A stretch of DNA of 64,000 nt from Gammaproteobacteria bacterium (GTDB lineage: Bacteria > Pseudomonadota > Gammaproteobacteria > Eutrophobiales > Eutrophobiaceae), in NCBI GenBank assembly GCA_965222155.1, contig CBDCTH010000012.1, forward strand, positions 3,296,001 to 3,360,000, given 5' to 3'. Shown here in pieces: positions 8,517 to 27,990 of the stretch. The notes below the pieces were generated by a model that worked only from the letters and a program-made list of their open reading frames with translations, did no database searches and was not told the DNA's origin. Position numbers and translations under genes: made by a program. How positions within the stretch are numbered: position 1 is the first letter of the stretch; each line of letters begins with the position of its first letter.

Positions 8517-8550
8517 CCGGCAGCCTGTCAATATTGTTTTGATAATTACG

Positions 8551-8979
8551 TGACTCGGCACACTGACGAATACCAGCATCCATACGTGACCCATCATACC
8601 GACGAATACCTGCATCCATACGTGACCCGTCATACTGACGAATACCAGCATCCATACGTGACCCGTCATACCGACGAATACCAGCATCCATACGTGACTC
8701 GGCACACTGACGAATACCAGCATCCATACGTGACCCGTCATACCGACTTGCATCCATACGTGACCCGTCATACCGACTTGCATCCATACGTGACCCGTCA
8801 TACCGACTTGCATCCATACGTGACCCGTCATACCGACTTGCATCCATACGTGACCCGTCATACCGACTTGCATCCATACGTGACCCGTCATACCGACGAA
8901 TGCCTGCATCCAGTCGATTAAATGATTCCTTATAAGGAAGTGTTATTTGACTGGATTCTGGCATTCTCCAGAATGACGG
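8551..8979. repeat. Tandem array (5x36 bp + 5x30 bp + 1 unit) amplified from the left arm of a GTCAT..ATCCAG REP-like doublet
   Basis: Units tgacccgtcataccgac(gaatacca/tt)gcatccatacg at 8551-8912. The last unit (8885-8915) is an inverted repeat of 8949-8979 (25/31 match). Confidence 0.9.
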
Positions 8980-9017
8980 TTGGTCGCTATACGGTTGGCC
9001 ACGCCTTGATGGTTGTT

Positions 9018-11763: not shown

Positions 11764-12543
11764 TTACTGGGAAAGTCGGCGGGCCAGGGACTTCAACTTG
11801 GTAATTCGTTCAATCGAAGACGGGTGTGAACCGGAAAACCCTCCGGACAGGTGTTTGGTTTTTTTGAATACCAGTTCCTGCAGACGCACCGCCCCATTAG
11901 GGTCGTAACCGGCTTCAACCGCCCAGATTGCGCCCAGGTAGTCTGCCTCACGTTCATTGTCACGACTGTATTTGGTGTTGGATGCTGTCATTATGTCGGT
12001 TCTGCGCCTGGTCTTATTATCTTCGCCGTGATTTAACTTAAGATGGCCCAGTTCATGACCGATCAGGGCGGCGGCCATGTGTACGTCCAGACCCAGTAAA
12101 TCGAGCATGCCGAAATTGATGCCTACTATGTTGATTTCTACGGCGTTTTCTTCATCGATCGGTTTTGTATCCTTGATAGCTTTTCCCTGCAGGCTTGTTT
12201 CTTCACTGCCTGTTTCGGCTTCACCCTCAACGCCGGCATCTACCGGCACCAGTTCAGCCATGCCCTTGGTGGCAAAGGCATTGGGTGTTTCGCCATTAGT
12301 AATGATCAGTTCCGACCTGAGTTCCGAGACTTCCTCGATGGCCTGCATTACCGAATAAAGATAGATCATCTGCTTTGCGTCTATCCTCTTCAGCAGCCTG
12401 TTTTTATTATCACGTAACTCGACGGTCTCGGCATTTGTCCGGGCGAGGTCTTCAATCTTCCAGGTGTAACTGAACGGCGCGGCAAGGCCGTGGCTTGAGA
12501 TTAGTAGCACCAGACAGGCGCTCAGGACAGTCTGTTTAATCAT
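11764..12543 (-). CDS. M48 family metallopeptidase, exported
   Basis: PNAFA, HELGH, YSRDNEREAD and SHPSSIERI; signal peptide from MIKQ. Confidence 0.88.
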   Translation of the reverse strand: MIKQTVLSACLVLLISSHGLAAPFSYTWKIEDLARTNAETVELRDNKNRLLKRIDAKQMIYLYSVMQAIEEVSELRSELIITNGETPNAFATKGMAELVPVDAGVEGEAETGSEETSLQGKAIKDTKPIDEENAVEINIVGINFGMLDLLGLDVHMAAALIGHELGHLKLNHGEDNKTRRRTDIMTASNTKYSRDNEREADYLGAIWAVEAGYDPNGAVRLQELVFKKTKHLSGGFSGSHPSSIERITKLKSLARRLSQ

Positions 12544-13002
12544 GAATGTTATTTCCCATTGCCAGAAAACCGGTAAACCGACCACCCGTACACATCAATC
12601 TTGACTTTGGATTGGAGAGTAATTTAATTGTATGATCAAATTCAGCAGTAGGTAATTTCGACAGGCTTGCTACCAGCCTATTTTGATGTAACTGGGTAAC
12701 ATAACGTTCTACACGCTTTCTCTGAAGTTTCCGTAGTTGGATTTTTCACAATACATGGTTTTTTCTGCTTAAACACGTAAAAAAACATATTTTAGAATGT
12801 ATTATAGAGAATCATAGCGGTACTGCCCCTGAGGGGCAAATTACAATGAATTAGCCGAAGATATTGTCACAGAACCGCCTATACCCTATTATTACCTGAT
12901 CGGGTGCGGGAACATTTAGCACTGATCCCTATCTAACTTTAACGTGGTATACGCAGTGGATGTTTGAACTATAATTTACTAATCGGGTACGGGGATGAAC
13001 TT

Positions 13003-13887
13003 ATGAATTTCGCTAATGTTGTGGGTGGAGCGCTACGATTCTCAGTCATGATTTCCGTGATGGCGCTTGTCACGGCCTGCAATACGACACCTGCCGTTCG
13101 ATCGTCAGGGGCTCCAGGCTCACCAGGGGCTCCAGGCTCACCAGGCCCATCTGGTTCGCCGGGTTCATCGGGACCTTCCGTTCAGGTAGGGGTATCGGGT
13201 ATGCCGCAAGTGCCGGGGTTACCGGGTCAGCCCACGGCCGGCTCAGGGGGAACACCGGATACTCCCGTCCCCGGCAGGATCTCAATACCCGCTACGCAAA
13301 CCGGCGAGAGTAATTTACCGAACGGGTCAGGATCTACTGCCGAAATGGGACGAGAAAAGACCGATGATGAAATCCTCGCCGAAGCTTTGCAGGAACTCAG
13401 GAAAAGGCGTGAGCCGGGGCAACAGGGCGCAGGCGCTGCCGGGCAAATGCCCCGGGCCGGCGCAGGCGATTCGGCAAAGACTGATACAGAGAAGAAACAG
13501 GCTCTCGGCAATGAACTGGAAGAGGGCTTTTCAGAATTTGACAGCCTGATGCTGAGTGAACAACAGGCCATTAATGAACAAGCCAACCAGGAAGGGTACG
13601 GTGGTTTTCTCGAAGGCGATGATTTTCCCGGAGAGAGCGACCCTGCACAGGGCCTTGGGGAGGAGCCATTGCAGACGGCAATGGTCGACTCTGACCCTGT
13701 GTCTATTAAGGGCGAGGGGAATATCCCGACCAGAAGCCACAGCCAGGTTCCTCCTGATCTTGTTGACGCCAAGGGAGACGATATCATCGCCCGTCAACTG
13801 CGTGAGGCCGCCATGAAAGAACAGGACCCCGAGTTAAGGGATAAACTCTGGGATGAATATCGTAAATACAAGCGAGATTTAAGATGA
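13003..13887 (+). CDS. Lipoprotein with Gly-X-Y low-complexity segment and helical C-terminus
   Basis: Lipobox LVTAC; GAPGSPGAPGSPGPSGSPGSSGPS; C-terminus DDIIARQLREAAMKEQDPELRDKLWDEYRKYK; ATGA overlap with the next gene. Confidence 0.75.
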   Translation: MNFANVVGGALRFSVMISVMALVTACNTTPAVRSSGAPGSPGAPGSPGPSGSPGSSGPSVQVGVSGMPQVPGLPGQPTAGSGGTPDTPVPGRISIPATQTGESNLPNGSGSTAEMGREKTDDEILAEALQELRKRREPGQQGAGAAGQMPRAGAGDSAKTDTEKKQALGNELEEGFSEFDSLMLSEQQAINEQANQEGYGGFLEGDDFPGESDPAQGLGEEPLQTAMVDSDPVSIKGEGNIPTRSHSQVPPDLVDAKGDDIIARQLREAAMKEQDPELRDKLWDEYRKYKRDLR

Positions 13888-15077
13888 AATCAAGTCATGT
13901 AAAGCTGGTTACAGCAGTTGTTTCACTGTGTTTCAGCCTGGTCGGCTGTAACACAACCACGGTAAAGTCGGCCAGTTATGAGAAGGTGGTGCTGGAATCG
14001 GAAGTAACACCGGAAGAATTACTGCTGGACGTGGGAGTTGGTATTTTCAATCCCGGAACTGATGCCTTAAGTGTAGAGGAAGAAGGTGTGTTTCCTAAAA
14101 TACGCGAGGCTGAGGCGCGTTTTATGCCGTACAAGCTGATGGAAACCCTGCAGCATACGGGTAACTGGGGTGTGGTGCGGTTAATCCCGGACCGGTTAAG
14201 CGAAATGGACGTGTGGGTGGATGGTGAAATCCTGAAATCGGACGGTGAAAACCTCTGGTTGCAGGCAACGGTGGAAGACTCTACGGGAAAACGCTGGTTC
14301 AGCAAAAAGTATACGGGATTGGCCGGCAAGTACTCGTATGATGACACTACAGCAAACCGCAGTGAACCGTTCCAGAAGATCTATAACCAGATCGCAAACG
14401 ATATGCTGGCTTATCGCAACCAGTTCGATGCCGCTGGAATCAGTAATATACGCACCGTTGCCGAACTGAAGTTCGCCAGGGACTTTTCTCCGGATGTGTT
14501 CCACGATCACCTGGGTGTGGATAAAAAGGGACGTTATTTCGTTAAACGCCTGCCCGCCGCAGGTGATCCGAGTATGCAACAGATCCGTCAGATCCGGGAA
14601 CGTGACTATATATTTGTCGACACGCTGCAACAGTATTATGCCTCGTTTGTCAACCAGATGGAGGACCCGTACCGGGAGTGGCGCGAAGCCTTCTACCTGG
14701 AAAGTCAGGCTTTGAAGGAAGTCAAATCCGAAGCGAACGCCCGGCTGGTCGGTGGCGCCCTGGCGGTGCTGGCCGGGATACTGGCCCAGGGGGTTGACAG
14801 CCGTACTGCACGGACAGCCGGCTGGGTAGGCATAGGCGCCGGCGCTGCCGCGATCCAAAGCGGCCTGCAAAAGCGTGAAGAGGCCAAGATTCACGTGGAA
14901 GCACTGGAGGAAGTTTCCGCTTCCCTCGATTCAGAGATAGAACCCCACTCCATAGACCTGGAGGACCGCACCGTCACTCTTTCCGGTACGGTAAACGAGC
15001 AATACGGTCAATGGCGCCGGATACTGAAAGAAATTCATGCAACGGAAACCGGGTCAGCCACTGATGCCGGCAAATGA
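13884..15077 (+). CDS. Uncharacterised lipoprotein
   Basis: Lipobox SLVGC; glycine-zipper-like GGALAVLAG...GIGAGAAA; overlaps both neighbours by 4 nt. Confidence 0.8.
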   Translation: MKSSHVKLVTAVVSLCFSLVGCNTTTVKSASYEKVVLESEVTPEELLLDVGVGIFNPGTDALSVEEEGVFPKIREAEARFMPYKLMETLQHTGNWGVVRLIPDRLSEMDVWVDGEILKSDGENLWLQATVEDSTGKRWFSKKYTGLAGKYSYDDTTANRSEPFQKIYNQIANDMLAYRNQFDAAGISNIRTVAELKFARDFSPDVFHDHLGVDKKGRYFVKRLPAAGDPSMQQIRQIRERDYIFVDTLQQYYASFVNQMEDPYREWREAFYLESQALKEVKSEANARLVGGALAVLAGILAQGVDSRTARTAGWVGIGAGAAAIQSGLQKREEAKIHVEALEEVSASLDSEIEPHSIDLEDRTVTLSGTVNEQYGQWRRILKEIHATETGSATDAGK

Positions 15078-16639
15078 CGGATAGCAAGGATTCCGGTTTT
15101 GTTCCCATCAAGCCGGTGGCTGTCGACCTGACTGCCGCCGCAACACCGCAACAGCAAAAAAGCAGGCGCTTCGGCAAACAGCCTTTATTATGGCTGGGAG
15201 CCGGCGCGGCGCTGTTGATTGCAATCAGCGTTATTTTCCTGCTTCCCCATTGGGTGGAGAAGCCTGTCATGGAGCCCGGCAATGCGATCAGCCTGACCCA
15301 TCCTGATGAGTCCGGTCAGGGAATTTCCCCTGGGAGTGCGCCACAAGTGGCAGGGGGTACGTCTCCGACGGGTGATGCTCCGTGGGGAAAAGCGCAACAA
15401 TTCTCTCAGCGTAAAGAGAGCCAGGAAATACTGGGGCAGTTGCTGGAAGCACAGAAAATTCTGCAGGAAAGGGGCGTGACCGTGTGGGGCAAGAAGGAAT
15501 ATGCGCGGGCGATAGAACAGGCCAAGTCGGGTGATGCAGAATACAGCCGGCAAAATTTCTCCCAGGCCCATGACCATTATGCGCGGGCACTGGATATTTT
15601 TACCGGGCTGCTGCAAGGCATGGAAGAGTTGTTTACCGCAACGATGGAAGCCGGCGATATTGCATTATCTGCAGGTGATGTCGCTGCGGCCCGTGAGGCT
15701 TTCAGCATCGCCCTCGCCATTGATCCTATTGACCGGACCGCTCTGCTGGGGATGGAACGAGCCGGGACCCTGACTGAAGTCATAGCCCTGGTTGACAGGG
15801 GAGATGTGTTGTTGCGCGCTGGAAAAGCCGAACAGGCCAAAGCACTGTATCAGCAGGCGCTGGCGCTTGATGGCTACTCGGACCGGGCAAGACAACAGGT
15901 GCAGTTGGCTGCAGACAGAATCAACGAGAACGCATTCAACCTTGCCATGTCTTCCGGCTTCCGGTTGCTTGAACAGGGGAGCTATGCGCAGGCGCAGGAT
16001 GCGTTTTCCAGGGCGCTGAAGATAAAACCCCGGTCGCGTGATGCGCGCAGCGGGCTCGACCAGGCGCAACATCGTATAACCGCTGGAAAAATCAACGCGT
16101 TACTGAAACAGGCCGAAACAGCAGAGCAGAATGAAGACTGGCAGGAGGCCGTATCCGGCTATGACGCTGCCCTGAAACTGGACAACAACCTGGGCAATGC
16201 GCGGGAAGGCAAACGACGAGCAACCCTGCGCAGCGAAATACACAATAAGCTGGAGCAGGTACTAGCCCGGCCTGAGCGGCTGTTTGATCGAAACGCGTTT
16301 AACGAGATCGTCAGTTTCCGTGACAAAATTCAGGCGCTCTCCGAACCCGGGCCGGTGCTGACCGGGCAGTTGGCAAAACTCAACCAGTTACTGAGGTTGG
16401 CCGATACGCCCGTTACCGTACAGCTCAGGTCCGACAACCTGACTCGGGTTACCCTCTACAAGGTCGGCGAACTCGGTTATTTCACCAGCAAAAGCCTGTC
16501 ATTGCGCCCGGGCTACTACGTGGCGGTCGGACATCGTGACGGCTACCGTGACGTGCGCGTTGAATTTTTTGTTGGCCCGGACCAGGCTATGGAACCCGTC
16601 ATTGTCAGCAGTGATGAAAAGATAGCCCTGGGACGTTAA
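15074..16639 (+). CDS. Membrane-anchored TPR protein with C-terminal beta (PEGA-like) domain
   Basis: One TM helix; TPR-type motifs (AFSIALAIDP, YQQALALD, AFSRALKIKP); LRPGYYVAVGHRDGYRDVR. Confidence 0.8.
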   Translation: MTDSKDSGFVPIKPVAVDLTAAATPQQQKSRRFGKQPLLWLGAGAALLIAISVIFLLPHWVEKPVMEPGNAISLTHPDESGQGISPGSAPQVAGGTSPTGDAPWGKAQQFSQRKESQEILGQLLEAQKILQERGVTVWGKKEYARAIEQAKSGDAEYSRQNFSQAHDHYARALDIFTGLLQGMEELFTATMEAGDIALSAGDVAAAREAFSIALAIDPIDRTALLGMERAGTLTEVIALVDRGDVLLRAGKAEQAKALYQQALALDGYSDRARQQVQLAADRINENAFNLAMSSGFRLLEQGSYAQAQDAFSRALKIKPRSRDARSGLDQAQHRITAGKINALLKQAETAEQNEDWQEAVSGYDAALKLDNNLGNAREGKRRATLRSEIHNKLEQVLARPERLFDRNAFNEIVSFRDKIQALSEPGPVLTGQLAKLNQLLRLADTPVTVQLRSDNLTRVTLYKVGELGYFTSKSLSLRPGYYVAVGHRDGYRDVRVEFFVGPDQAMEPVIVSSDEKIALGR

Positions 16640-16656
16640 CTCGGATGATCACGGCC

Positions 16657-16689
16657 ACAGAGCCTGCCCCTGCACGTCGTAAGCAGGGG
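16657..16689 (+). repeat. Short palindromic element ACAGAGCCTGCCCCTGC-N-GCAGGGG (copy 1)
   Basis: Other copies at 21541, ~36166 and ~36314; a related inverted form at ~36444. Confidence 0.8.
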
Positions 16690-16705
16690 GGCACAGACAA
16701 AAACG

Positions 16706-18787
16706 ATGGATGAGAGGACAAAGAATCCGGTAACAAACTCCCGTGCCGGCGCCCGAATTGAAGCGGCGAAGTTTGAACCGCTGAGGTCTGAAAGGACCAC
16801 CTGGACTGTTGCGCTTAATGCGCGGTTTTGCCTGATTATTGTTCTGCTTGCAGTCGGCGTGTTCAGTGCCTGGTTTATGTTGACCGCCAAAGCGGTATAT
16901 ATTGAAACTGAGCCGTTGAATACGAATGTCGATATATCCGGTGCTCTGAAGCTGAAACTGGCCAATCGTTATCTCATACGTCCCGGCACTTATGATCTTG
17001 GTCTGTCTGCACAGGGTTATCGCCCGCTGCAGGAAAGACTCGGTGTCACCGAAGAGGCGGCTCAGCATTATATTTACCGGCTGGAGAAACTGCCTGGACA
17101 CTTACGGATTGACAGCGGCGAAATAACGGGCGCCAAAGTACTTATCGATGGTATGGGCAGAGGAGAAACGCCTGTTACCATCAGGGACCTCCCTCCCGGA
17201 GAATATCTTGTGGAGATCAGGGCGGAGCGACATTTCCCTTTGCGCGCGGAAATTACGCTGGAAGGACTCGATCACGAACAGTCCGTCAGTGCTGAGCTGA
17301 AGCCTGCGTGGGCAAAGATCAGTTTCGCTTCGGAGCCATCTGACGCACAGGTATTCAACGGAGATGAACTGCTCGGCAGGACGCCCCTGACGGCGGAATT
17401 GCTGGAAGGCAAACACAATGTCAGGATTAAGGCAGCAGGCTATAAAGTCTGGCACGATACGATGGCAGTGGTCGCGGGGACACCACAGTCCTTCACCGAT
17501 ATCAAGCTGGAGCCGGCGGATGCCACCTTATTCCTGGTGTCCAAACCGGCACGAGCCAATGCCACCATCAATGGGAATTACCTGGGTTTGACACCGTTGG
17601 AAGTGCCCCTGACGCCGGGACAGACCACTCATGTGCGGTTGTTCAAGCAAGGTTACAAACCAGCGGCCAGGTCCCTGACCGCTGCATCAGGCGAACGGAA
17701 GAAACTGTCTGTCACACTGGAACCGGAACTGGCCTCCGTAGCAGTCAGGGTCGAACCTGAAGATGCATCTGTGTACGTTGACGGAGCACTGGTCGGGATG
17801 GCTGACCGCACCCTGCGGTTATCGACCAGCAAGCATCGTATAGAGATCCGCAAGCAGGGTTACGTGGATTACAAGACCACCCTGACACCGCTTGTGGGGG
17901 TTGAACACGAACTGAACGTGCAACTGAAGACCATCAAGCAGGCAAAACTGGAAACCATCAAACCGGTGATCACGGCGCCGGCCGGACCGGCACTGAAGCT
18001 GTTTTACCCGGGCGCTTTTACCATGGGAGCGTCACGTCGGGAGCCGGGGCGCCGGGCTAATGAGACCATTCGCAATGTCAAGCTGACGCGGCCCTTTTAC
18101 CTGGGATTGAAAGAGGTGACAAACAAGGAATACAGGTTGTTCGACAAGGGCTTTTCATCCGGTATCGTGCGCGGTAACAGTCTTAATGGAGAGACCCAGC
18201 CGGTAGTCAACCTCACGTGGCAACAGGCGGCAAGTTATTGCAACTGGCTGAGCAAACAGGCTTCGTTGAAGCCTTTCTATATTGAAAAAGAGGGCCGGAT
18301 TACAGGTTTTGACAAAACGGCCGACGGCTACCGCCTGCCGACGGAGGCGGAATGGGCCTGGGCGGCGCGGGTCACCAATACAGGTGAGATACTCAAGTTC
18401 CCTTGGGGCGGGGAGTTGCCGCCCGGGAAAAACAGCGGTAATTTTGCCGACCGTAAGGCAGCGGCCTTGTTCGGCAGGATCATCGGCAACTATGATGACG
18501 GTTATGTGGCCAGCGCACCGGTGGGCAGCTTCACGCCTAACGACAAGGGAATATTCGACCTGGGCGGCAACGTCGCGGAATGGGTTAACGACTACTACGA
18601 CGTTGTGATCAACGCCGAGAAAAAAGTTGAGGTTGACCCCGTGGGACCAACAAGCGGAGAGTTCCACGTCATGCGCGGCTCAAGCTGGGCCCACGGCGCC
18701 ATTACCGAGCTGCGCCTGTCGTTCAGGGACTACGGCAGTAAGTCAAGGCAGGATGTGGGCTTCAGAATAGCCCGTTATGCGTATTAA
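16706..18787 (+). CDS. PEGA-repeat + FGE-sulfatase (SUMF1-like) domain membrane protein
   Basis: N-terminal TM; several PEGA repeats (GETPV, GRTPL, GLTPL); FTMG, YRLPTEAEWAWAAR, DLGGNVAEW and VGFR. Confidence 0.9.
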   Translation: MDERTKNPVTNSRAGARIEAAKFEPLRSERTTWTVALNARFCLIIVLLAVGVFSAWFMLTAKAVYIETEPLNTNVDISGALKLKLANRYLIRPGTYDLGLSAQGYRPLQERLGVTEEAAQHYIYRLEKLPGHLRIDSGEITGAKVLIDGMGRGETPVTIRDLPPGEYLVEIRAERHFPLRAEITLEGLDHEQSVSAELKPAWAKISFASEPSDAQVFNGDELLGRTPLTAELLEGKHNVRIKAAGYKVWHDTMAVVAGTPQSFTDIKLEPADATLFLVSKPARANATINGNYLGLTPLEVPLTPGQTTHVRLFKQGYKPAARSLTAASGERKKLSVTLEPELASVAVRVEPEDASVYVDGALVGMADRTLRLSTSKHRIEIRKQGYVDYKTTLTPLVGVEHELNVQLKTIKQAKLETIKPVITAPAGPALKLFYPGAFTMGASRREPGRRANETIRNVKLTRPFYLGLKEVTNKEYRLFDKGFSSGIVRGNSLNGETQPVVNLTWQQAASYCNWLSKQASLKPFYIEKEGRITGFDKTADGYRLPTEAEWAWAARVTNTGEILKFPWGGELPPGKNSGNFADRKAAALFGRIIGNYDDGYVASAPVGSFTPNDKGIFDLGGNVAEWVNDYYDVVINAEKKVEVDPVGPTSGEFHVMRGSSWAHGAITELRLSFRDYGSKSRQDVGFRIARYAY

Positions 18788-18948
18788 CCCGTATTATCCC
18801 GCATATCACCAAAAGACGCGTTGAGCGTACGTTGGTGCTTTCGGGCACCTGTGTAGAGACTCACGTATTGCCCTTCCACAGCTCGGTTTCGTCCCCTTTT
18901 ATGTGGCAGTGATACAATGTGAAACGTAGAATAATCAGATAAACAGCT

Positions 18949-19719
18949 ATGGGCAGTAAACTCAAGTACACGATGGGAAATCCCGGCGATATCATCAAGC
19001 ACGGTCTACTGGCCGAGTTTGTTGCCTGGTGGGGCGAAGCTCACAACAATCGCATCTTGCGGTTTGCTGACCCGTTTGGTGGCTGTCCGTGGGGTAATAT
19101 TGAAGAACCTGTTAAAAATAGATTGGAGATATTATCAGGAACCATTCTTGCTCAAGCGCAGAATAACGGCGGCAAGGGTAGAAAGTATTTAGGTTCCGGT
19201 CATTTGGTTCAGCAAGCAGCAAAAGATTGCGGGGTTGATGTTTGTGTTCTTGTATCAGATAAGGATGAAGGTGCGCGGTGTGATCTGATAGATTCGGGTT
19301 TGGATCTCATAGAACCCCGCCTGCCGGGTGATGATGGCTATGGAATTCTTGATGCCATGTACCCGCAAAAATATGATTTGATATTATTGGACCCGTACAG
19401 CGATTTTTTATTAAACGAATACCAAAATAAAAACAAGCGGTTTGATCAAATTCAAAATGAAGTAAACAGGAATTCCGAATTGTTTATAGCAGTTTTTGTT
19501 TTGGATATGGATACCAATAATACAATCGGTCGGAATTTTGCCAATTACAAAGAATCCCAATTATCGGATTGGGCTTTTTCCATCCGCTGTCCTAAAATGG
19601 AAAATTCGAAGTACGATTGGGAGATTTTGCTTATCAGCCGACAAATCAAAGAACGTAAATGCAAGCACGTCATCACGAACGTCTGCAAAGTTTTGCCGGG
19701 CAGACTGAAGGTGCATTGA
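18949..19719 (+). CDS. Divergent RlmJ-like SAM-dependent methyltransferase-fold protein
   Basis: GNPGDIIKH (cf. RlmJ GNxADVxKH), ADPFGG, YLGS and LILLDPY; AT-rich; 3' end possibly frameshifted. Confidence 0.55.
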   Translation: MGSKLKYTMGNPGDIIKHGLLAEFVAWWGEAHNNRILRFADPFGGCPWGNIEEPVKNRLEILSGTILAQAQNNGGKGRKYLGSGHLVQQAAKDCGVDVCVLVSDKDEGARCDLIDSGLDLIEPRLPGDDGYGILDAMYPQKYDLILLDPYSDFLLNEYQNKNKRFDQIQNEVNRNSELFIAVFVLDMDTNNTIGRNFANYKESQLSDWAFSIRCPKMENSKYDWEILLISRQIKERKCKHVITNVCKVLPGRLKVH

Positions 19720-19744
19720 AAACACCATTGGAATTATGGGGCGG

Positions 19745-20053
19745 ATGATTTCGGAAATTGCGAAGCGGGACATAGAGTTGGAGCAGCTTTGTGTCCGTTA
19801 CCATGTACGGCGGCTCGACCTGTTTGGTTCAGCCGTAACCGGTCGGTACAACCCGAAGGAAAGTGACCTGGACTTCGTGGTTGAGTTTCAACCACTGCCT
19901 GCCGGCGAATACGCCGACACCTACTTCGGTTTACTGGAAGCTCTGGAACGACTCTTCGGGCACCCTGTAGACCTGATAATCGGATCGGCCATCAAGAATC
20001 CTTATTTTCTGCAATCGGTTGAAAAAACGAGAACTGCGGTTTATGAGACTTGA
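19745..20053 (+). CDS. MNT nucleotidyltransferase antitoxin (MntA-like)
   Basis: LFGSAVTG...SDLDF and VDL motifs; start at 19745 or 19736. Confidence 0.9.
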   Translation: MISEIAKRDIELEQLCVRYHVRRLDLFGSAVTGRYNPKESDLDFVVEFQPLPAGEYADTYFGLLEALERLFGHPVDLIIGSAIKNPYFLQSVEKTRTAVYET

Positions 20054-20381
20054 GGCCAGAAAATACTTGTATGATATTCAGCGCGCCGTCGAATTGCTGA
20101 GGGAATTTACTGCTGGAAAGACACTTTCGGATTATGAAGAAGACGCCATGCTACGTGCAGCAGTTGAACGTCAGTTCGAAATTATCGGCGAAGCTATGGC
20201 ACAACTTGCCAAAGGTGACAAAACAGTAGTTTCCCGGATCAGCAAATACCAACGCATCATCGCGTTTCGCAATATCTTGATTCACGGCTATGCGTACGTG
20301 GATGATAGATTGGTATGGGATGTGGTAGAAACATATTTATCAACTTTAGGCAGCGAAATTGAAGTTTTGTTGGGAGAGTAA
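20043..20381 (+). CDS. HEPN/DUF86 ribonuclease toxin (HepT-like)
   Basis: AVERQFEIIGEA and RNILIHGY (R-x4-H); start at MRLEARK. Confidence 0.9.
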   Translation: MRLEARKYLYDIQRAVELLREFTAGKTLSDYEEDAMLRAAVERQFEIIGEAMAQLAKGDKTVVSRISKYQRIIAFRNILIHGYAYVDDRLVWDVVETYLSTLGSEIEVLLGE

Positions 20382-20450
20382 AAGGAGGTAGAGAAGACCA
20401 CAAATTACGTCTCCGAATGGAAAACGCGAAACAGACAAATCTTCAGAAAG

Positions 20451-20675
20451 GTGTTCAATTTGATGGTTAAAATGATTTTTATTCTTGCGATGTTTGCTGC
20501 TGTTACGGTAGCGGCGCAGCAGCCCCCCGTTGCAGCGGAGCCTGACAGCGTGGAAACGCAGGAGAAAGAGGAAAAGCAGGGCGCGCAGGATGCCGCTGAA
20601 GGCGCTCCGGAAACCTTCGATCCGACTGAGGAGATTTCCGAGGACTATTCCATAGAATTTCCAGTCGATATATAA
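20451..20675 (+). CDS. Small exported acidic protein
   Basis: Signal peptide; acidic linker; C-terminus FDPTEEISEDYSIEFPVDI; immediately upstream of the ExbB-like gene. Confidence 0.7.
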   Translation: MFNLMVKMIFILAMFAAVTVAAQQPPVAAEPDSVETQEKEEKQGAQDAAEGAPETFDPTEEISEDYSIEFPVDI

Positions 20676-20682
20676 AGTTATC

Positions 20683-21480
20683 GTGAAATATAACCAGACG
20701 ACAGATTTTTTCTACCAGTTGTTTACGCTGATTGCCGCAATTATCATCGTTCATGCGGCTTATCTCGCCGTGATCCGGCCGAACGCGGAAGCCATCCTGG
20801 AGGAACAGCGCATCCAGCAACAGGCAGGTGAAAACTACGAAGTGAAACGTTCCGTTTTTATCGTGATCAAGGATTTTGAACAGGAAGCCTGTTTTATCCT
20901 GGCCCTCTGGGTCGTTGCCATTATCGGCCTGAAAACCAGGGTAGCGCTGTCCGAAAGACGCCTGCTGAACCGGTCCCTGCTGGAGGTGGCTGCCGGCGCT
21001 GCCATCCTGCCCGAGGATACCCGCCAATATATCAGGCCGTTACAGGCCCTGGCGCAGGATGAACGGGAATACCTGTTGCCGCGTGCCCTGCAGGCGGCAT
21101 TGCAACGATTTGGCTCCACCGCTGATATCCAGGACGTTTCATCAGCCATCCGGGAAATATGTGAGACGCAATCCGACCGGCTGGATTCCGAACTTTCCAT
21201 GATCAGGTACGTTATCTGGGCCATACCCTCCATCGGCTTTATCGGCACGGTGCGCGGTATCGGCGAAGCCCTCGGCCAGGCGCACCGGGCGGTTGAAGGC
21301 GACATCGTAGGGGTGACCGTCAGCCTGGGTGTCGCCTTCAACTCCACCTTCATCGCCCTGATTATCAGTATTTTCATCATGTTCCTGATGCACCAGTTAC
21401 AGCTGATGCAGGAAAGACTGGTGCTGGATACACAGCATTACTGTGACGTAAACCTGCTGCGACACCTGCAGGTCAGGTAG
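20683..21480 (+). CDS. MotA/TolQ/ExbB proton channel family protein
   Basis: WAIPSIGFIGTVRGIG and LGVAFNSTFIAL TM motifs. Confidence 0.92.
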   Translation: MKYNQTTDFFYQLFTLIAAIIIVHAAYLAVIRPNAEAILEEQRIQQQAGENYEVKRSVFIVIKDFEQEACFILALWVVAIIGLKTRVALSERRLLNRSLLEVAAGAAILPEDTRQYIRPLQALAQDEREYLLPRALQAALQRFGSTADIQDVSSAIREICETQSDRLDSELSMIRYVIWAIPSIGFIGTVRGIGEALGQAHRAVEGDIVGVTVSLGVAFNSTFIALIISIFIMFLMHQLQLMQERLVLDTQHYCDVNLLRHLQVR

Positions 21481-21506
21481 ATGAGGCAGACAGGAGAGGT
21501 CGGGAC

Positions 21507-21580
21507 GTCATGCCGGACAGGGATTGTCCGGTATCCAGTCACAGAGCCTGCCCCTGCATGCAGTAAGCAGGGGGATGTGA
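21507..21580. repeat. Nested REP-like elements
   Basis: GTCATGCCGGAC..GTCCGGTATCCAG followed by TCACAG[AGCCTGCCCCTG..CAGGG]GGATGTGA. Confidence 0.7.
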
Positions 21581-21611
21581 GAGATGCGGGTTCACGTCAT
21601 CGGTGGCATGA

Positions 21612-22931
21612 ATGAGTGACTCTGTTATAGAGCTGAATGACTCTGAGGTGACGATTGTTCAGTCCGGGAACATCGTGGCCAGCAGCCCTGGTATTGCGGT
21701 GCTCAGGCAGGATCGGATCGAACTGGGACAGGCAGCCTTGCAATCCACGCATATCGACCCGAGGAATACCTTCAGCCGCTTCTGGAGCAATCTCAACCAG
21801 GACAGCTTCAAGCAGCGGACGACACTGGCCAGACATAATGCCGACCTGGCCTTCGCCCACCTGTTATCCCTGCACAAGACGGCGGGCGAGGTGGATAAAG
21901 CGGTCTTTGCGGTACCCGGCAGTTTTACCACAGGGCAACTAGCGCTGTTGCTTGGCCTGGTAGAGGCTTCTCCGTTTACCGCAACAGGTCTGGTCGACGC
22001 CGCTGTTGCGGCGACGGCTGCGACGGCCGGCGCAGGCAGGTATAACCACCTGGACATCCACCTGCATCACACCGTCGTCACCTCTCTGGAGGTCTCGGAA
22101 ACAGTGAAGCGTACGGCAGTCAAGGTCATAAATGACGTTGGCCTGCTGGATATTCAAGACAAGTGCGTGAATCATATTGCCGACCTGTTTATTCAGCAAT
22201 CCCGGTTTGATCCGCTGCATCATGCCGCAACGGAACAGGCGCTTTGCAACTGCCTGGCGCAATGCCTGCATGAGTTGGAAAGGGAAGTTGACACGATGGT
22301 TGAGATTGAGTTTGAGAGTACCCGCTACCAGGCCCGGGTAAACAGGGAGCGCCTGGTGGAAGCGCTGCGACCGCTGTACAATAAAATCAGCGCAGTCGTT
22401 GATGCTTCCTGCATCTCTCTGGTAACCAAGCGCCTGGCTAGTCTTCCCGCGTTCACCGATCACCTGGCTGTAGCAAGCAAGAAGGCCGTGGTCCTGGATG
22501 AACGCGCGGTGTTCGTCGGCTGTATGGGCTTTATGCTGGAAGATAAAGCTGCGGATGAAGAGATTTATTTCGTCACCCAACTCAAGGCTGCTGCAGAACC
22601 TGTGATAACCCATGCAGCAACAACGGCAAGCCTGGAACAAAAGCCTGAGCTTGGGGCGACCCACGTCCTGGTGGATGCTAAGGCCCACCCACTCGGACCG
22701 GTTCCGTTATATCTGTCCGCGCAAGGTGTGTTAATGGAGTCCAGGGGGCAGGACTCCTTTTGCTCCCTGATATTGAGGGATTCTTTTGCAAGCCTTGCCC
22801 TTGCAGACGACTCTGTACCTGTTTTTGTCAATGGCCGGGTTGTCACCGGCAACACCGGACTCAATCCGGGTGACGTGATCGGTTTTACCGGCTCGACACA
22901 CGAATTTACCCTTATCAGAGTCCTGACCTGA
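21612..22931 (+). CDS. Putative actin/Hsp70-like fold protein with C-terminal FHA-like domain
   Basis: VIELND, SPGIA, VFAVPGSF, GLVDAAVAA and HLDIHLH pattern; C-terminal VFVNGRVV...LNPGDVI. Confidence 0.55.
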   Translation: MSDSVIELNDSEVTIVQSGNIVASSPGIAVLRQDRIELGQAALQSTHIDPRNTFSRFWSNLNQDSFKQRTTLARHNADLAFAHLLSLHKTAGEVDKAVFAVPGSFTTGQLALLLGLVEASPFTATGLVDAAVAATAATAGAGRYNHLDIHLHHTVVTSLEVSETVKRTAVKVINDVGLLDIQDKCVNHIADLFIQQSRFDPLHHAATEQALCNCLAQCLHELEREVDTMVEIEFESTRYQARVNRERLVEALRPLYNKISAVVDASCISLVTKRLASLPAFTDHLAVASKKAVVLDERAVFVGCMGFMLEDKAADEEIYFVTQLKAAAEPVITHAATTASLEQKPELGATHVLVDAKAHPLGPVPLYLSAQGVLMESRGQDSFCSLILRDSFASLALADDSVPVFVNGRVVTGNTGLNPGDVIGFTGSTHEFTLIRVLT

Positions 22932-22966
22932 CATGTCGCGCGCGGACAGACATTTCAGAGGCCAGC

Positions 22967-22991
22967 GGGGACAGATTTGAAATCTGTCCCC
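22967..22991. repeat. GGGGACAGATTT(G)AAATCTGTCCCC palindrome (REP-like)
   Basis: Further copies at 25232-25257 and 44605-44628. Confidence 0.8.
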
Positions 22992-23012
22992 TGTCACGGC
23001 GGTAGATGAGAT

Positions 23013-24104
23013 ATGCGGGCTAAGAGACTGCTTACCCCCTTCAGCCTGTCGTTTCTGGACATCATGTCCTGTAGTTTCGGCTCAGTGGTGTTGTTGTTTC
23101 TCATCATCGAGCATAACATTGATACCAACGTCCCCGTCCCCATTCCTATCGATGCCCGCGACCAGACTGCCGAGGTCATGCTGCTGGAGGAGGAGATACT
23201 GGAAGGCAAACGAAATCTCGCGCAGACCCGCAATACCATCTCGGAAATCGATGAGCAACTGGTGGTCGCGCAAGGCCTGGCCCGGCGTATCATGGAAAAA
23301 ATCCGGGAGACCCGGTCCCTGATAGATCAACTGTCAGAGACTACTGATTCCGTCGAACTGGATCGGCTGAAGCTCAATATCAAGAAGCTGGAGGAGCAGA
23401 AACAGCAGTTGCAGGAGGAAATCAAGGAAACAGGGGATGACGCCCGGCGCCTGGTCGGTGACGGGAACCGCGAGTACCTCACGGGCTTGAAACTGGGCGG
23501 CAAGCGAATATTAATCCTGCTGGATATCTCCGGCAGCATGCTGCACGATACCATCGTCAATATCATCCGGTTTCGCAATATGCCGGACGGGAAGAAGCGC
23601 ATCGCGCAAAAATGGGTGCAGACTTTGAAAATGGTGGACTGGCTGACGGCCAAATTTCCCAGGGACAGTCAATATCAAATCTACGTCTTCAATACTGAAA
23701 CGCAATCGGTGCTGCCCGGACTGGACGGAAAATGGCTGGAGATAGGAAACAAGACGGAATTGAATTCGGCTATTGAGGCACTCGGAAGGATTGTGCCGGA
23801 GGGCGGCACCAACCTGGAGAAGGCCTTTGCCGCTATCGGTAAACTGCGGCCGCGGCCTGACAACGTCTACCTGATCACGGACGGTTTGCCCACCCAGGGA
23901 TCCAGAACGATCCGGGGCGCTAAAATTAGTGGCAGACAACGACTCGACCTGTTTACCAGGGCCGTAAAACAGCTTCCGGGCAATGTACCCGTTAATGTGA
24001 TCCTGGCGCCGCTGGAAGGAGACCCGGAAGCGGCCTACGCCTTCTGGCGTCTGGCCATGACTACCGACGGTTCGTTCCTGGTGCCGAGTGAGGACTGGCC
24101 ATGA
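23013..24104 (+). CDS. vWA-domain protein with ExbD-like N-terminal TM helix and coiled coil
   Basis: FSLSFLDIMSCSFGSVVLLFLII; coiled coil; MIDAS LLDISGSM, GGTN and LITDG. Confidence 0.85.
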   Translation: MRAKRLLTPFSLSFLDIMSCSFGSVVLLFLIIEHNIDTNVPVPIPIDARDQTAEVMLLEEEILEGKRNLAQTRNTISEIDEQLVVAQGLARRIMEKIRETRSLIDQLSETTDSVELDRLKLNIKKLEEQKQQLQEEIKETGDDARRLVGDGNREYLTGLKLGGKRILILLDISGSMLHDTIVNIIRFRNMPDGKKRIAQKWVQTLKMVDWLTAKFPRDSQYQIYVFNTETQSVLPGLDGKWLEIGNKTELNSAIEALGRIVPEGGTNLEKAFAAIGKLRPRPDNVYLITDGLPTQGSRTIRGAKISGRQRLDLFTRAVKQLPGNVPVNVILAPLEGDPEAAYAFWRLAMTTDGSFLVPSEDWP

Positions 24105-25096
24105 GAAAGAAACGGCGGGAAAACGAGGCGTTCAGTATTTCATTCCTGGACGTCATCACCTGCGGTTTCGGTGCAATCATACTGTTGCTCATGATCGCCA
24201 AAACAGGGGACAGTCCCATACTGGAGAGAGCGCTCGAATCCATGCACGGCATCGTGCGGGAATTGCAGGTGCAATTATTTGAAATCCGCGGCGAGGCCAA
24301 AATCCTGGACCGTGAGTTGGACGCCAGGCATGAACAGCGTTCCGAATGGGAGGAGCGGGTTGCGCGACTTGAGGCGGAATTGGCAAAGGAAGAATTACGC
24401 TATAACAGTGTGCGTGACGACTCGGCTGTCGGCGTCATCATCAAGGGGGAATTTGAGCTGGCCCTGCAAAGACTGACGGCAGAAATGAAGCGCCTGTTGT
24501 CACAAAGAGACCCTGTACGGACCGATTTGATAGGCGGCATACCGGTCGACAGTGAATATGTCATTTTTATCATCGACACCTCGGGCAGCATGATCAACTA
24601 TCATTGGGAAAACATGATCAACCAGTTGATTACCACCCTTAACGTCTATCCCCGCCTCAAGGGGATACAGATCATGAGTGACATGGGCGAATACCTGTTT
24701 TCCCAGTACCGGCGCAGCTGGATTCCCGATACGGAAGGGAGGCGCAAAGTCATCATCAGGACCTTGCGTAGCTGGCGCGCCTTCAGTAACAGCAGCCCGG
24801 TGGAAGGCATCACCCAGGCGATTCGCAGCTTTTATGACCCCGGAAAAAAGATCAGTATTTTCGTGTTCGGCGACGAGTTTACCGGCCCTTCAATCAAGGA
24901 AGTCCTGGATACGGTGGAGCGCATCAACCCGAAAGACAAGGATGGGAAAACCCGAGTGCGCATCCATGCGGTCGGTTTTCCTGTTCCCTCCAGTGCAGGT
25001 GAACATTTCCTTTTGACCAACAAACGTTATGCTTCACTCATGCGCGAACTGACCCGCAGCAACGGCGGCGCGTATGTCGGTCTGAATGAAAAATGA
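24101..25096 (+). CDS. vWA-domain protein with ExbD-like N-terminal TM helix and coiled coil (paralog)
   Basis: FSISFLDVITCGFGAIILLLMIA; IIDTSGSM, VFGDE and IHAVGF. Confidence 0.85.
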   Translation: MRKKRRENEAFSISFLDVITCGFGAIILLLMIAKTGDSPILERALESMHGIVRELQVQLFEIRGEAKILDRELDARHEQRSEWEERVARLEAELAKEELRYNSVRDDSAVGVIIKGEFELALQRLTAEMKRLLSQRDPVRTDLIGGIPVDSEYVIFIIDTSGSMINYHWENMINQLITTLNVYPRLKGIQIMSDMGEYLFSQYRRSWIPDTEGRRKVIIRTLRSWRAFSNSSPVEGITQAIRSFYDPGKKISIFVFGDEFTGPSIKEVLDTVERINPKDKDGKTRVRIHAVGFPVPSSAGEHFLLTNKRYASLMRELTRSNGGAYVGLNEK

Positions 25097-25231
25097 ACGC
25101 CATGAATATGTCGGCGGCTCAGCAACTTTTCTTTGTTGAACAGGCTACACCGGGATAGTGGCAAGCGCAACGGTCATAAAGGTTGCCGCCCATCAATACC
25201 CCGCTAAATCGAGGTGAATACAGAAGACAGG

Positions 25232-25257
25232 GGGGGACAGATTTAAATCTGTCCCCC
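25232..25257. repeat. Perfect 26-bp palindrome GGGGGACAGATTTAAATCTGTCCCCC
   Basis: Seen in sequence; a second REP-like hairpin follows at ~25301-25353. Confidence 0.8.
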
Positions 25258-25456
25258 AGGAGTCCCGGGCATACTCTGACCATAAAGGGGCCTATTTCCC
25301 TGGGAGGGAGGGCGTCTCGCCCTCCACGAGGGCAGGATGTCCTCGATCCCGGGAGTTAGCGGGAACTGCTGCATCAATACAAAGTTTGTGGACTACCACT
25401 CAGTTAAGGTCAATAATACAGGTATATCAAGATACGAAGTACCGGATAGGGCCAGA

Positions 25457-26086
25457 ATGACTAACAGACTCATTTACGCAGTCAGCTTATTGCTAATCCT
25501 GACGGCGTGCGAGCAGTCTATGACCCTCAGGGTGGAAAGTGAAATACCCACCCCGGTGGTAGAACGGATGCCGGTAAAGATCGGTGTATTCTATCAGGAC
25601 GAGTTGCGCAACTACGTCTCAGAGGAAAATTCCGATGAACGACCCAACTGGAAGATCGAGAGCGGTTCCTCCCACGTAGCCTTATTCGAGCAAATTCTTT
25701 CATCAATGTTCCAGGAAGTGACAGAAGTCACCGGTACGACCACTGCTGCAACGGTTGATGCCGTGCTGGCGCCGAGGGTTGCTGAAATGCAATTTGCCCT
25801 GCCGGCGGAAACCAAAACAGATTTTTATGAGGCCTGGGTCAAGTACGATATGGAGCTTTATAACCAGGACGGCAGCCGGATTGCAAACTGGTCGGTGACA
25901 GGGTATGGCAAATCCTCGACCGAATTCATGAAAAGTCGTGATAAAGGACTCAACGCGGCGGTAAACCAGGCCCTGCGGGATGCAGGCGCCAAATTAGCGC
26001 TTGGTTTCCCCAAGGTAGGGGAGATCAGCGTCTGGCTGGAGCAGAAGGACAAAAAATCCGCAGATTACGCAGATGAACGCAGATAA
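25457..26086 (+). CDS. Uncharacterised lipoprotein
   Basis: MTNRLIYAVSLLLILTAC lipobox; its C-terminus is contributed by a repeat arm. Confidence 0.75.
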   Translation: MTNRLIYAVSLLLILTACEQSMTLRVESEIPTPVVERMPVKIGVFYQDELRNYVSEENSDERPNWKIESGSSHVALFEQILSSMFQEVTEVTGTTTAATVDAVLAPRVAEMQFALPAETKTDFYEAWVKYDMELYNQDGSRIANWSVTGYGKSSTEFMKSRDKGLNAAVNQALRDAGAKLALGFPKVGEISVWLEQKDKKSADYADERR

Positions 26087-26202
26087 GTTATGATATTTTA
26101 TTCAGAGGTACAGCATAAAAACCAATACTGCCATCAGCGGTCACCTCAATCATCTGTGAACCAATAAGTTTTTATCTGCGTTCATCTGCGTAATCTGCGG
26201 AT
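26056..26202. repeat. Perfect 31-bp inverted repeat pair with an 85-bp spacer (MITE/REP-like)
   Basis: ATCCGCAGATTACGCAGATGAACGCAGATAA (26056-26086) and its reverse complement (26172-26202). Confidence 0.9.
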
Positions 26203-26256
26203 AAAACATCTATAATCTTCGGATGTAACATAAGCCTTGGTGAGTGGCATGTGAGC

Positions 26257-26925
26257 ATGAATATCCTGTCAGCTATCACGTTGTTAATCGGTCTGTCCCT
26301 GTTGGCGGGGTGCAAGAGCACCACGGTTATAGACGAGTATCGTGAAGCTTCTACAGCGGCGATCGGCCAGGGTGAGGCCATCGTGATACTGGGACGCCGG
26401 CATAGCTCCAGCTACGAGACCGAGGACGATTTCATAAGCTGTGTGGGCAAGTCACTGGGGCAGGGGCAATCCGACATAGACGTGATCCCGGAAAAAGTCT
26501 TCGTTGATGGCATGTATCCTTATTTTGAGACCAGCACCGCGCCCATGGATGTCAGGAACCTGAATAAACTGGTCGAGATCCCCGCTATCGCCGCTAAATT
26601 CAATGAGTTCAACATCCGTTTTTTCGTCTGGATCGACGGCGCCACTGAAAGAACGGATTCATCGGGTTCCGTCTCCTGTGCGGTCGGACCCGGCGGCGGC
26701 GGCTGTTTCGGGTTTGCCTATTGGAAGGATGAAGCCAACTATGAGGCCAGTATATGGGACTTCAAGAAGTTGGCCCTGTCCGGAAAGATCAATGCCGAAA
26801 CCAAAGGCACGTCATACATGCCGGCTGTAATCATTCCAATCCCCATGCTCGCCCGAGTCCAGGAAAACGCCTGTAAATCCCTGGCCAACCAGATCAGGAT
26901 ATTCTTCTCGCAACAACCGGGTTAA
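26257..26925 (+). CDS. Uncharacterised lipoprotein
   Basis: Lipobox LLAGC; SCAVGPGGGGCFG motif. Confidence 0.8.
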   Translation: MNILSAITLLIGLSLLAGCKSTTVIDEYREASTAAIGQGEAIVILGRRHSSSYETEDDFISCVGKSLGQGQSDIDVIPEKVFVDGMYPYFETSTAPMDVRNLNKLVEIPAIAAKFNEFNIRFFVWIDGATERTDSSGSVSCAVGPGGGGCFGFAYWKDEANYEASIWDFKKLALSGKINAETKGTSYMPAVIIPIPMLARVQENACKSLANQIRIFFSQQPG

Positions 26926-27202: not shown

Positions 27203-27472
27203 ATGGCAACATCACGTATAGATATGAGGGTCGATGAGACCATTAAGGCGGCTGCAGAAAAAGCAGCGGCTCTTGAGGGTATGAAGAGTCTGACTGAATA
27301 TGTAGTCCGACTGATTGAGAAGGATTCACAACGGGTAATCAAGGAGTATGAATCGGTCACCCTCAAGGATGACGTATTTGATCGATTTATCCGGGCCTGT
27401 GATGCAGCACAAGCGCCTAATCAAAAACTGCGGGAGGCCAGGGAGCTTGCCCGGCAGAAGAATATCCGGTGA
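27203..27472 (+). CDS. DUF1778 (RHH) antitoxin, TacA/AtaR-like
   Basis: SRIDMRV...AAAL...SLTEYV and APNQKL; overlaps the GNAT toxin. Confidence 0.9.
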   Translation: MATSRIDMRVDETIKAAAEKAAALEGMKSLTEYVVRLIEKDSQRVIKEYESVTLKDDVFDRFIRACDAAQAPNQKLREARELARQKNIR

Positions 27473-27990
27473 TCCCTTCGTCCCAATTCGTTGAATTGGA
27501 TAAAGTCGTTCATGATCGCAAATCTTTTGATTGCGGCGCGGAAGAGTTGAACCTGTTTCTTCAGCAGTTTGCTGTCAAGCACAGAACAGCAGGTATCAGT
27601 ATGACAATGGTGTTGCCGGCCAAAGAGAGCAAAGCCGGTATCTGTGCCTACTACACGCTGTCCCACACTGAGATAAAACGACAGACGTTACCGAAGTCAG
27701 TCGCAAAGAAGTTACCTTATTATCCGATTCCAGTGATGCTGATAGCGCAACTCGCAGTGAATAAGAAAGCTCAGGGTCAAGGGCTTGGTAAAATCACACT
27801 GATTCGTGCATTACAACATGCCGGCGAAATCAATGAGCATTTGCCCTCTTATGCCATAGTGGTTGATGCGTTGGATAATCAAGTTCAGGGATTTTACGAG
27901 CAATTCGGTTTTACAGCTCTCGACACCCACAGCCATCGCAAACGCCTCTACATGACCATGCAAACTGTAGTGCAATTATTCAGTGAATAA
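27469..27990 (+). CDS. GNAT acetyltransferase toxin, TacT/AtaT-like
   Basis: HDRKSFDCG, LAVNKKAQGQGLG, VDAL and FYEQFGF. Confidence 0.9.
   Translation: MIPSSQFVELDKVVHDRKSFDCGAEELNLFLQQFAVKHRTAGISMTMVLPAKESKAGICAYYTLSHTEIKRQTLPKSVAKKLPYYPIPVMLIAQLAVNKKAQGQGLGKITLIRALQHAGEINEHLPSYAIVVDALDNQVQGFYEQFGFTALDTHSHRKRLYMTMQTVVQLFSE

Follow-up and report, generated by a model that had tools for sequence, protein, structure and literature searches.

A putative ion-driven trans-envelope machine with a TolQ-like channel subunit and two vWA proteins in marine Gammaproteobacteria

Ion-driven motors of 5:2 stoichiometry are the power source of flagella and of gliding, and they also energise the uptake of nutrients, the constriction of the envelope, type IX secretion, and defence against phages. 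Among them, GldLM of the type IX system provides a long periplasmic axle beside a non-catalytic protein of the formylglycine-generating enzyme (FGE) fold, while the Agl-Glt gliding kit combines a TolQ-like subunit and two Asp-helix partners with TPR, FHA, TonB_C, and vWA components; AglQ and AglS are TolR-like, the vWA protein CglB is a surface lipoprotein, and the Glt beta-barrels reside in the outer membrane. The subject of this study is a cluster of eleven genes, here designated A to K, which are all encoded on the plus strand between positions 13003 and 26925 of a 64,000-nucleotide stretch of gammaproteobacterial DNA (contig CBDCTH010000012.1, positions 3,296,001 to 3,360,000; this whole stretch is referred to as the window). 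An earlier analysis of the letters alone, referred to below as the sequence-only reading, had described eleven co-oriented genes and named their protein types, all of which are indeed present. We tentatively propose that eight of them form the core of an ion-driven 5:2 motor working a channel made of the outer-membrane lipoprotein B. The cluster points to a further output of 5:2 motors, which is retained even in genomes of 1.6-2 Mb, and it names all the parts from the inner to the outer membrane.

The probable motor subunits and their predicted counterparts

Genes F, H, and I have a counterpart in a second vWA family associated with TolQ-like motors, for which a TolQ-like pentamer holding a heterologous pair of trans-pore helix (TPH)-vWA proteins, without tolR or exbD, has been modelled with AlphaFold 3 as a prediction only (Williams-Jones et al., Mol Biol Evol 2025, Fig. 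4c-d; PMC12204202). As far as the available text of that paper describes these motors, they share five features, all of which recur here: a tolQ homologue beside two vWA genes (F with H and I in 25/27 loci of the unbiased set defined below); no tolR, exbD, or motB (none by Pfam in the window, and, with a profile built from only three domains and hence of limited sensitivity, no ExbD/TolR match in 140 loci); a heterologous pair, represented by the paralogues H and I (hhalign probability 99.85, 16% profile identity); an Asp in the trans-pore helix without an SHLS motif, as found in both H and I; and a threonine ring, corresponding to T189/T222 of F. As judged from the sequences, the three-gene core F, H, and I therefore matches the TPH-vWA motors of PMC12204202, and it may belong to the sequence family of the Idiomarina query used there. 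The text of that paper and its text supplements do not name PEGA or formylglycine, although the figure labels and model files may show more of the cluster, and unlike the cluster analysed here, the family as described there includes no lipoproteins, peptide E, Hsp70/FHA, or TPR-TonB_C proteins. The previous statement that no functional description was known is only partly right, because the motor core had already been predicted in the available part of PMC12204202, while no published account of the whole cluster was found in a literature search covering few subscription journals. What appears new in the literature searched is the surrounding eight-gene envelope system with its peptide, its pore-like lipoproteins, and its link to TPR-TonB_C proteins. 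The 2025 proposal that the vWA proteins are the motor's own axle becomes testable in cultured Microbulbifer, Kineobactrum, Halioxenophilus, and Mariprofundus.

Gene F (20683..21480) codes for a channel subunit of the MotA/TolQ/ExbB family (PF01618; Pfam E 7e-15), whose best solved match is TolQ, with an alignment that is weak by itself (E 0.42). Its residues T189 and T222 align with T145 and T178 of TolQ and are kept in 137/137 sequences, and S221 (134 of 137) and N220 (136 of 137) are conserved as well. At its N-terminus, F has one additional membrane helix, and a DxEQE motif is also conserved. According to the available text of PMC10374538, Na+ selectivity is tied to three hydroxyl residues of PomA (T158, T185, and T186), and proton stators have Ala at two of these three positions. 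By a mapping to PomA that we infer, the T/S/T pattern of F resembles these hydroxyls, and the coupling ion may be either H+ or Na+.

The two vWA proteins H (23013..24104) and I (24101..25096) each consist of a single Asp-bearing membrane helix, a coiled-coil stalk, and a vWA head with an intact metal ion-dependent adhesion site (MIDAS). Residues D16, D171, S173, S175, and D290 of H are present in 96/96 homologues, as are D159, S161, S163, S231, and D258 of I in 83/83 and its D17 in 82/83, and the median span from the membrane Asp to the MIDAS amounts to 153 residues in H and 142 in I. Pfam recognizes the vWA domain in H and weakly in I, and a profile search with H yielded coiled coils only, plus one weak match to its vWA region. 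An SxxxH pattern occurs in the helices of none of 133 H and one of 126 I sequences, and likewise in none of 109 C and none of 119 D sequences. The description of both proteins as vWA-tipped, ExbD-like subunits is thus confirmed with respect to their Asp helices and vWA domains. Based on this conservation and on what is known of the family, F, H, and I very probably constitute an ion-driven 5:2 motor in which five F subunits would surround one H and one I. The sequence-only reading had also assumed powering by the proton motive force; an ion-powered envelope machine is indeed likely, because the Asp helices of H and I and the pore threonines of F are conserved and the genes co-occur, but the driving ion may be Na+ instead of H+.

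The cluster shares with the Ton and Tol-Pal systems a pentamer subunit of the MotA/TolQ/ExbB type, the Asp helix, and the pore threonines, as well as a TonB_C domain in an accessory gene of its relatives. It differs from Ton in carrying a coiled coil and a vWA domain on H and I instead of the periplasmic ExbD/TolR domain, and in the lack of a membrane-anchored TonB with SHLS motif, which is missing from the window and replaced in relatives by an exported protein without anchor. The absence of ExbD, TonB_C, OmpA/Pal, and TolB matches from all 17 window proteins scanned with Pfam agrees with the previous statement that no ExbD, TonB, or Tol-Pal gene is present, which holds for the window but not for the relatives, in which the cluster often starts with a TPR-TonB_C gene. 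Counterparts of tolA, tolB, and pal are not detected by Pfam or NCBIfam, with the likeness to TolB being limited to the fold of its N-domain, and F further differs from the Ton and Tol subunits by its extra helix and by lacking an acid at the position of TolQ E173; a linked receptor is missing as well. In contrast to the type IX machinery, F belongs to the TolQ family and not to GldL, neither GldL nor GldM is matched, and no Spr/Por beta-barrel genes are present. The Agl-Glt kit differs by its TolR-like subunits, whereas the vWA domain is fused here to the axle, and no TolR/ExbD domain or Agl/Glt family match occurs in the cluster proteins. Finally, no Zorya (ZorAB) model of PADLOC was matched among the 13 proteins scanned, and the OmpA domain is absent here.

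Conservation and extent of the core

Conservation was evaluated in a class sample of 400 scored genomes, 38 of which (about a tenth, including the genome of the window) contain F at a threshold of E <= 1e-30; one carrier (G063) was counted in this tally only, and 37 loci were taken from the other 36 carrier genomes. An unbiased set of 27 loci was defined by flanks of at least 7 kb upstream and at least 6 kb downstream. A phylum sample of 401 genomes and 80 further loci were also included, the latter being biased to close kin because they were picked as the best matches to F. In the unbiased set, H and I are present in 25/27 loci, B, C, and D in 24/27, A in 23/27, G in 13/27, and J and K in 6/27, confirming in the gene-neighbourhood check proposed previously that the genes travel together. 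Peptide E was at first taken for an accessory gene, since its initial profile was found in 11/27 loci only, but this view was rejected when a shorter E open reading frame (ORF) was recognized in the D-F gaps of distant loci. As judged from gene content, the conserved core is therefore composed of the eight genes A, B, C, D, E, F, H, and I, with G, J, and K as accessory genes. The unit of about eleven genes described before consists of real genes, but the conserved unit is smaller, and an insert of three genes (18949-20381) had been missed. Likewise, the genes were said to overlap often, which applies to three junctions (A/B, B/C, and H/I) but not to the remaining ones.

The expectation of similar clusters in other marine Gammaproteobacteria is borne out, as the cluster recurs in many, mostly marine bacteria, and extends to the Zetaproteobacteria. 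The H/I pair occurs in 11/401 genomes of the phylum sample, seven of them from one family of this other class; one H/I-family protein of this set is named Mariprofundus, and the gene order there is identical. The 80 best-matching loci include Microbulbifer, Porticoccus, Kineobactrum, Halioxenophilus, and Arenicella and represent a long version of the cluster. The gene order is constant across families and in the second class, and this recurrence argues that the arrangement is beyond chance. Moreover, the core is retained in genomes of 1.6-2.0 Mb. As a side observation, F homologues that are 45-64% identical are encoded without the cluster in two loci, which together with one locus encoding F, H, and I only are L018 (G201), L037 (G291), and L035 (G268); the remaining components may be encoded at other sites of these genomes.

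Envelope components and the proposed mechanism

As predicted before, lipoboxes are present in four proteins (A, B, J, and K). Lipoprotein B (13884..15077) is represented by an AlphaFold model with a mean predicted local distance difference test score (pLDDT) of 87, in which residues 45-181 resemble FlgT, DUF330/PqiC, PelC, CsgG, and the N-domain of TolB in Foldseek and VIA-align comparisons (Z 10.9-9.4, root-mean-square deviation 2.2-4.9). Beyond this fold, B adds a helical hairpin of about 120 residues, whose tip (286-326) contains two helices, 18 and 15 residues long, that are apolar and rich in Gly/Ala, with a polar loop between them, as derived from the hydropathy of 71 sequences. The accessory lipoprotein K (26251..26925; pLDDT 90.8) is predicted to adopt the same kind of fold (Foldseek E values of 6e-6 for PelC and 9e-6 for CsgG; VIA Z 9.8-9.3) and, like CsgG, contains two long beta-hairpins; the tips of those in K are hydrophobic. 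Lipoprotein J (25457..26086), also accessory, possibly shares the fold of the N-domain of B, as indicated by a weak hhalign match (71% over 133 columns), while the profile matches of B and J to K are carried mainly by the signal peptides. Pfam gives no match for B, G, J, and K, sequence and profile searches with B, J, and K against PDB and Pfam yielded no real match, and the matches of B in the ESM Atlas are limited to unnamed clusters. Judged from these models, B is a candidate outer-membrane ring or pore lipoprotein. The N-domain of B and K share the predicted fold of the PelC, CsgG, FlgT, and PqiC rings (Z 9-11, 8-15% identity), tied with the TolB N-domain; we know of none of these four lipoproteins being driven by a 5:2 motor.

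The tie with TolB leads to a different view, in which the motor would act as a Tol-Pal-like tensioner, pulling on outer-membrane lipoproteins (B, and A as a leash) to hold, constrict, or remodel the envelope without any channel. It would be in line with the resemblance of B and K to the TolB N-domain (Z 9.4-9.8), with TolQ as best solved match of F, with the flanks of 104 loci, which contain no linked cargo gene, and with a core retained in small genomes, which fits a housekeeping role. We nevertheless regard it as rather unlikely, as the cluster lacks Pal/OmpA, TolA, and TolB genes and is present in only about a tenth of the class genomes, the genome of the window encodes three ExbD/TolR-family proteins elsewhere, and the apolar hairpins of B and K are missing in TolB.

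The periplasm would be bridged by C (15074..16639) and D (16706..18787), which were correctly described as membrane-anchored TPR and PEGA-FGE proteins: each contains a single membrane helix, followed in C by a periplasmic TPR scaffold and a C-terminal beta domain that appears PEGA-like by eye but is not matched by Pfam, and in D by five PEGA repeats and a head of the FGE/SUMF1 fold. The nearest solved structures of this head are FGE and PorK at similar E values. A function of D as formylglycine-generating enzyme was rejected, because the catalytic cysteines are lost: the Cys motif is present in 0/106 homologues, and 105/106 contain no Cys in their last 60 residues.

The FGE fold of D, together with the vWA, TPR, FHA, and TonB_C parts, echoes the Agl-Glt and Gld kits, and the long H/I axle is similar to that of GldM, so that the cluster might work on its own as a motor for adhesion or gliding, by which an adhesin at the surface would be moved through B or K. 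We dismissed a connection to flagella or type IV pili, as FliG is present in 19/44 and PilT in 38/44 carriers and the genome of the window contains neither; the independence from flagella would suit a gliding motor, while the fact that 38/44 carriers already own PilT speaks against it. Furthermore, D scores 116.6 bits on the GldK model, for which 350 would be required, and its anchor is a membrane helix connected through the PEGA repeats, whereas GldK and PorK are lipoproteins (a lipobox-like motif occurs in 1/101 D sequences). With the vWA heads predicted to be periplasmic rather than surface-exposed and no adhesin gene linked in the flanks of 104 loci, a gliding function appears distinctly unlikely.

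The same FGE head might also be viewed as a lectin-like detector of a ligand or invader in a sensing or defence device, in which the channel and kinase or FHA parts would relay the signal. FGE domains are treated as variable binders in conflict systems in the available text of PMC7159879, where MotA/ExbB/TolQ proteins do not appear, and a Ser/Thr kinase is fused to the N-terminus of C in three loci (L022, L036, and L132). A distant sister cluster in the genome of the window also joins a MotA-like gene to kinase-FGE, FHA, PP2C, bAvd, and reverse transcriptase genes. Against this, the FGE head of D is conserved and not variable, the gene order is stable and looks vertically inherited, the FHA part of G lacks phospho-binding motifs, and PADLOC retrieved nothing beyond a coiled-coil match from the 13 proteins, which renders a defence role highly improbable. 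The sister cluster itself (G000:C12:1294043-1314607; L136, L137) consists of the MotA-like gene, a gene for an Asp-helix/coiled-coil protein without Pfam match, three Ser/Thr kinase-FGE proteins, FHA proteins, PP2C, and a trypsin-FHA protein, followed by bAvd and reverse transcriptase, whose appearance suggests a diversity-generating retroelement that targets the FGE heads. Two further weak MotA_ExbB matches are found in the same genome at G000:C12:2230004-2230300 and 47609-47872, with no ExbD match nearby. In four loci, D is extended at its N-terminus by a part resembling an FHA domain by eye, and the lineages with the C-kinase fusion and/or this extension are L022, L036, L132, and L020.

Two components may provide ligands for the vWA heads. 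Lipoprotein A (13003..13887) consists of a lipobox, a long low-complexity linker of 167-413 residues in 61 homologues, and a conserved helical C-terminal motif of about 45 residues with an acidic DDD patch (consensus from 81 sequences), for which the ESM Atlas gave no match at 0.9. The small exported peptide E (20463..20675, in an ORF starting at 20451) ends with a conserved F-P-x-D-I and in distant loci has only about 17 residues behind its signal peptide. A stop-ended pattern [FMLIY]P-x-[DN][IMLV] is present upstream of F in 130/134 loci, compared to 20/14097 background ORFs; because this pattern was drawn from E itself, the residue counts within it are partly given by construction. E is a candidate ligand of a vWA metal site.

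In the mechanism we propose, a ring of five F subunits would surround the helices of H and I, and the flow of H+ or Na+ past the two Asp residues would turn this axle against the ring. C and D would serve as the stator frame that holds F and bridges the periplasm, because H and I carry no wall-binding domain. The vWA heads would grip an acidic ligand via Mg2+, either the penultimate Asp of E or the DDD patch on the leash of A, and the resulting torque or pull would open or assemble a ring of B. In the extended version, G may provide regulation, J and K a second pore, an M48 peptidase quality control, and the TPR-TonB_C protein a strand-grabbing hand. We infer all of these contacts between the parts. 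Since the closest folds belong to secretion channels, export or surface display seems somewhat more likely than import. It is doubtful, in turn, that the cluster encodes a transport system across the envelope that has so far gone undescribed and corresponds in Proteobacteria to the rotary type IX machinery, but is made from other parts. In it, a possibly Na+-driven 5:2 motor would turn an integrin-like vWA axle, which would grip an exported peptide of 17-50 residues and drive B as an alpha-helical outer-membrane pore; its extended form would add a second pore similar to CsgG and a TPR-TonB_C protein as a free hand, and the system would be distributed over about a tenth of the sampled class genomes, streamlined marine ones included, and the Zetaproteobacteria. 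In any case, a candidate peptide ligand, a candidate pore, and a TonB_C adaptor are gained as concrete handles.

Several observations weigh against a motor-driven channel of B. The fold of B and K is shared by the non-pore proteins LptE and TolB (N-domain), which tie within 1 Z unit; since the TolB N-domain thereby equals the ring-formers, the fold alone is no proof of a ring or pore. The hairpin tip of B is the region of lowest confidence in the model (pLDDT 52-67). In F, the position of TolQ E173 is taken by V, I, L, or T in 136 sequences, with no acid. F occurs without the rest of the cluster in 2/27 unbiased loci and with H and I only in 1/27, and clustering of 1083 ORFs from the flanks of 104 loci revealed no conserved cargo, biosynthesis, or receptor gene. 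Lastly, the TPR-TonB_C gene assigned to the extended version is present upstream in only 3/22 unbiased loci and missing from the window.

Accessory, inserted, and neighbouring genes

The cytoplasmic protein G (21612..22931) was correctly described as actin/Hsp70-like with an FHA domain insofar as it gives weak profile matches, the best being Hsp70 (E 0.0017) and FHA (E 0.0026). It is accessory, however, and the functional motifs are missing: an active Hsp70 ATPase was rejected with the two ATP loops found in 0 and 1 of 83 sequences, as was a phospho-binding FHA domain with the binding motifs in 4 and 5 of 83. As far as can be judged from its sequence, G is likely an adaptor with inactive Hsp70-like and degenerate FHA parts.

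The dominant flank family in the relatives (50 loci), here called Z, comprises proteins with a signal peptide, TPR repeats, and a TonB_C domain (Pfam: TPR_12 in 50/50, TonB_C in 29/50), which match solved TonB structures at E 1e-10 to 1e-8 by profile. In 49/89 loci, its gene immediately precedes A in the same orientation, always together with G (e.g., L087:2054-3481 and 48 other loci). The signal is of the cleavable type in 45/50 proteins, an SxxxH pattern is found in 3 of 50, and there is no membrane anchor; a literature search on such an anchor-less exported TPR-TonB_C family found no paper. These properties would fit an energiser of uptake that resembles Ton but has its TonB detached, in which Z would grip the TonB boxes of receptors and the motor would pull on Z, and the genome of the window indeed contains 60 ORFs resembling receptors, as well as three full homologues of Z elsewhere (G000:C12:732528-733889, C4:404647-406029, and C4:408257-409606). 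Yet the minimal eight-gene version does without Z, receptor genes are present in only 2/140 loci, and the role of A, B, and E would stay unexplained, making this explanation very unlikely.

A gene for an M48 peptidase (PF01435), another accessory component, is located divergently outside the cluster (11764..12585, minus strand). It is present in 56/87 loci with K, a number including duplicates and close kin, and in none without K.

Counting the insert, 14 genes are located between 13003 and 26925. The three inserted genes on the plus strand, which lie outside the machine, code for a 256-amino acid protein without family, a nucleotidyltransferase, and a HepT-like RNase according to Pfam. They split the cluster between D and E, which therefore is not one unbroken operon. 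In BLAST searches, homologues of the insert were found only in L152-L154, which are of the same genus and carry it at the same site, indicating that the D-E gap is an insertion spot. This gap (18788-20450; also in L148, L150, L152-L154, and L157) contains nucleotidyltransferase/HepT pairs and other genes, up to about 4.5 kb. A promoter scan retrieved 14 sites compared to 11.9 +/- 4.1 expected, an outcome that is not informative. Just 3' of K, a pair of TacA antitoxin and GNAT genes is located at 27203-27990. On the other side, a tandem repeat array (8509-9021) occupies the junction of two helicase/nuclease-like genes on the minus strand (5109-8909 and 9018-11762) and reads as short repeated peptides in three frames.

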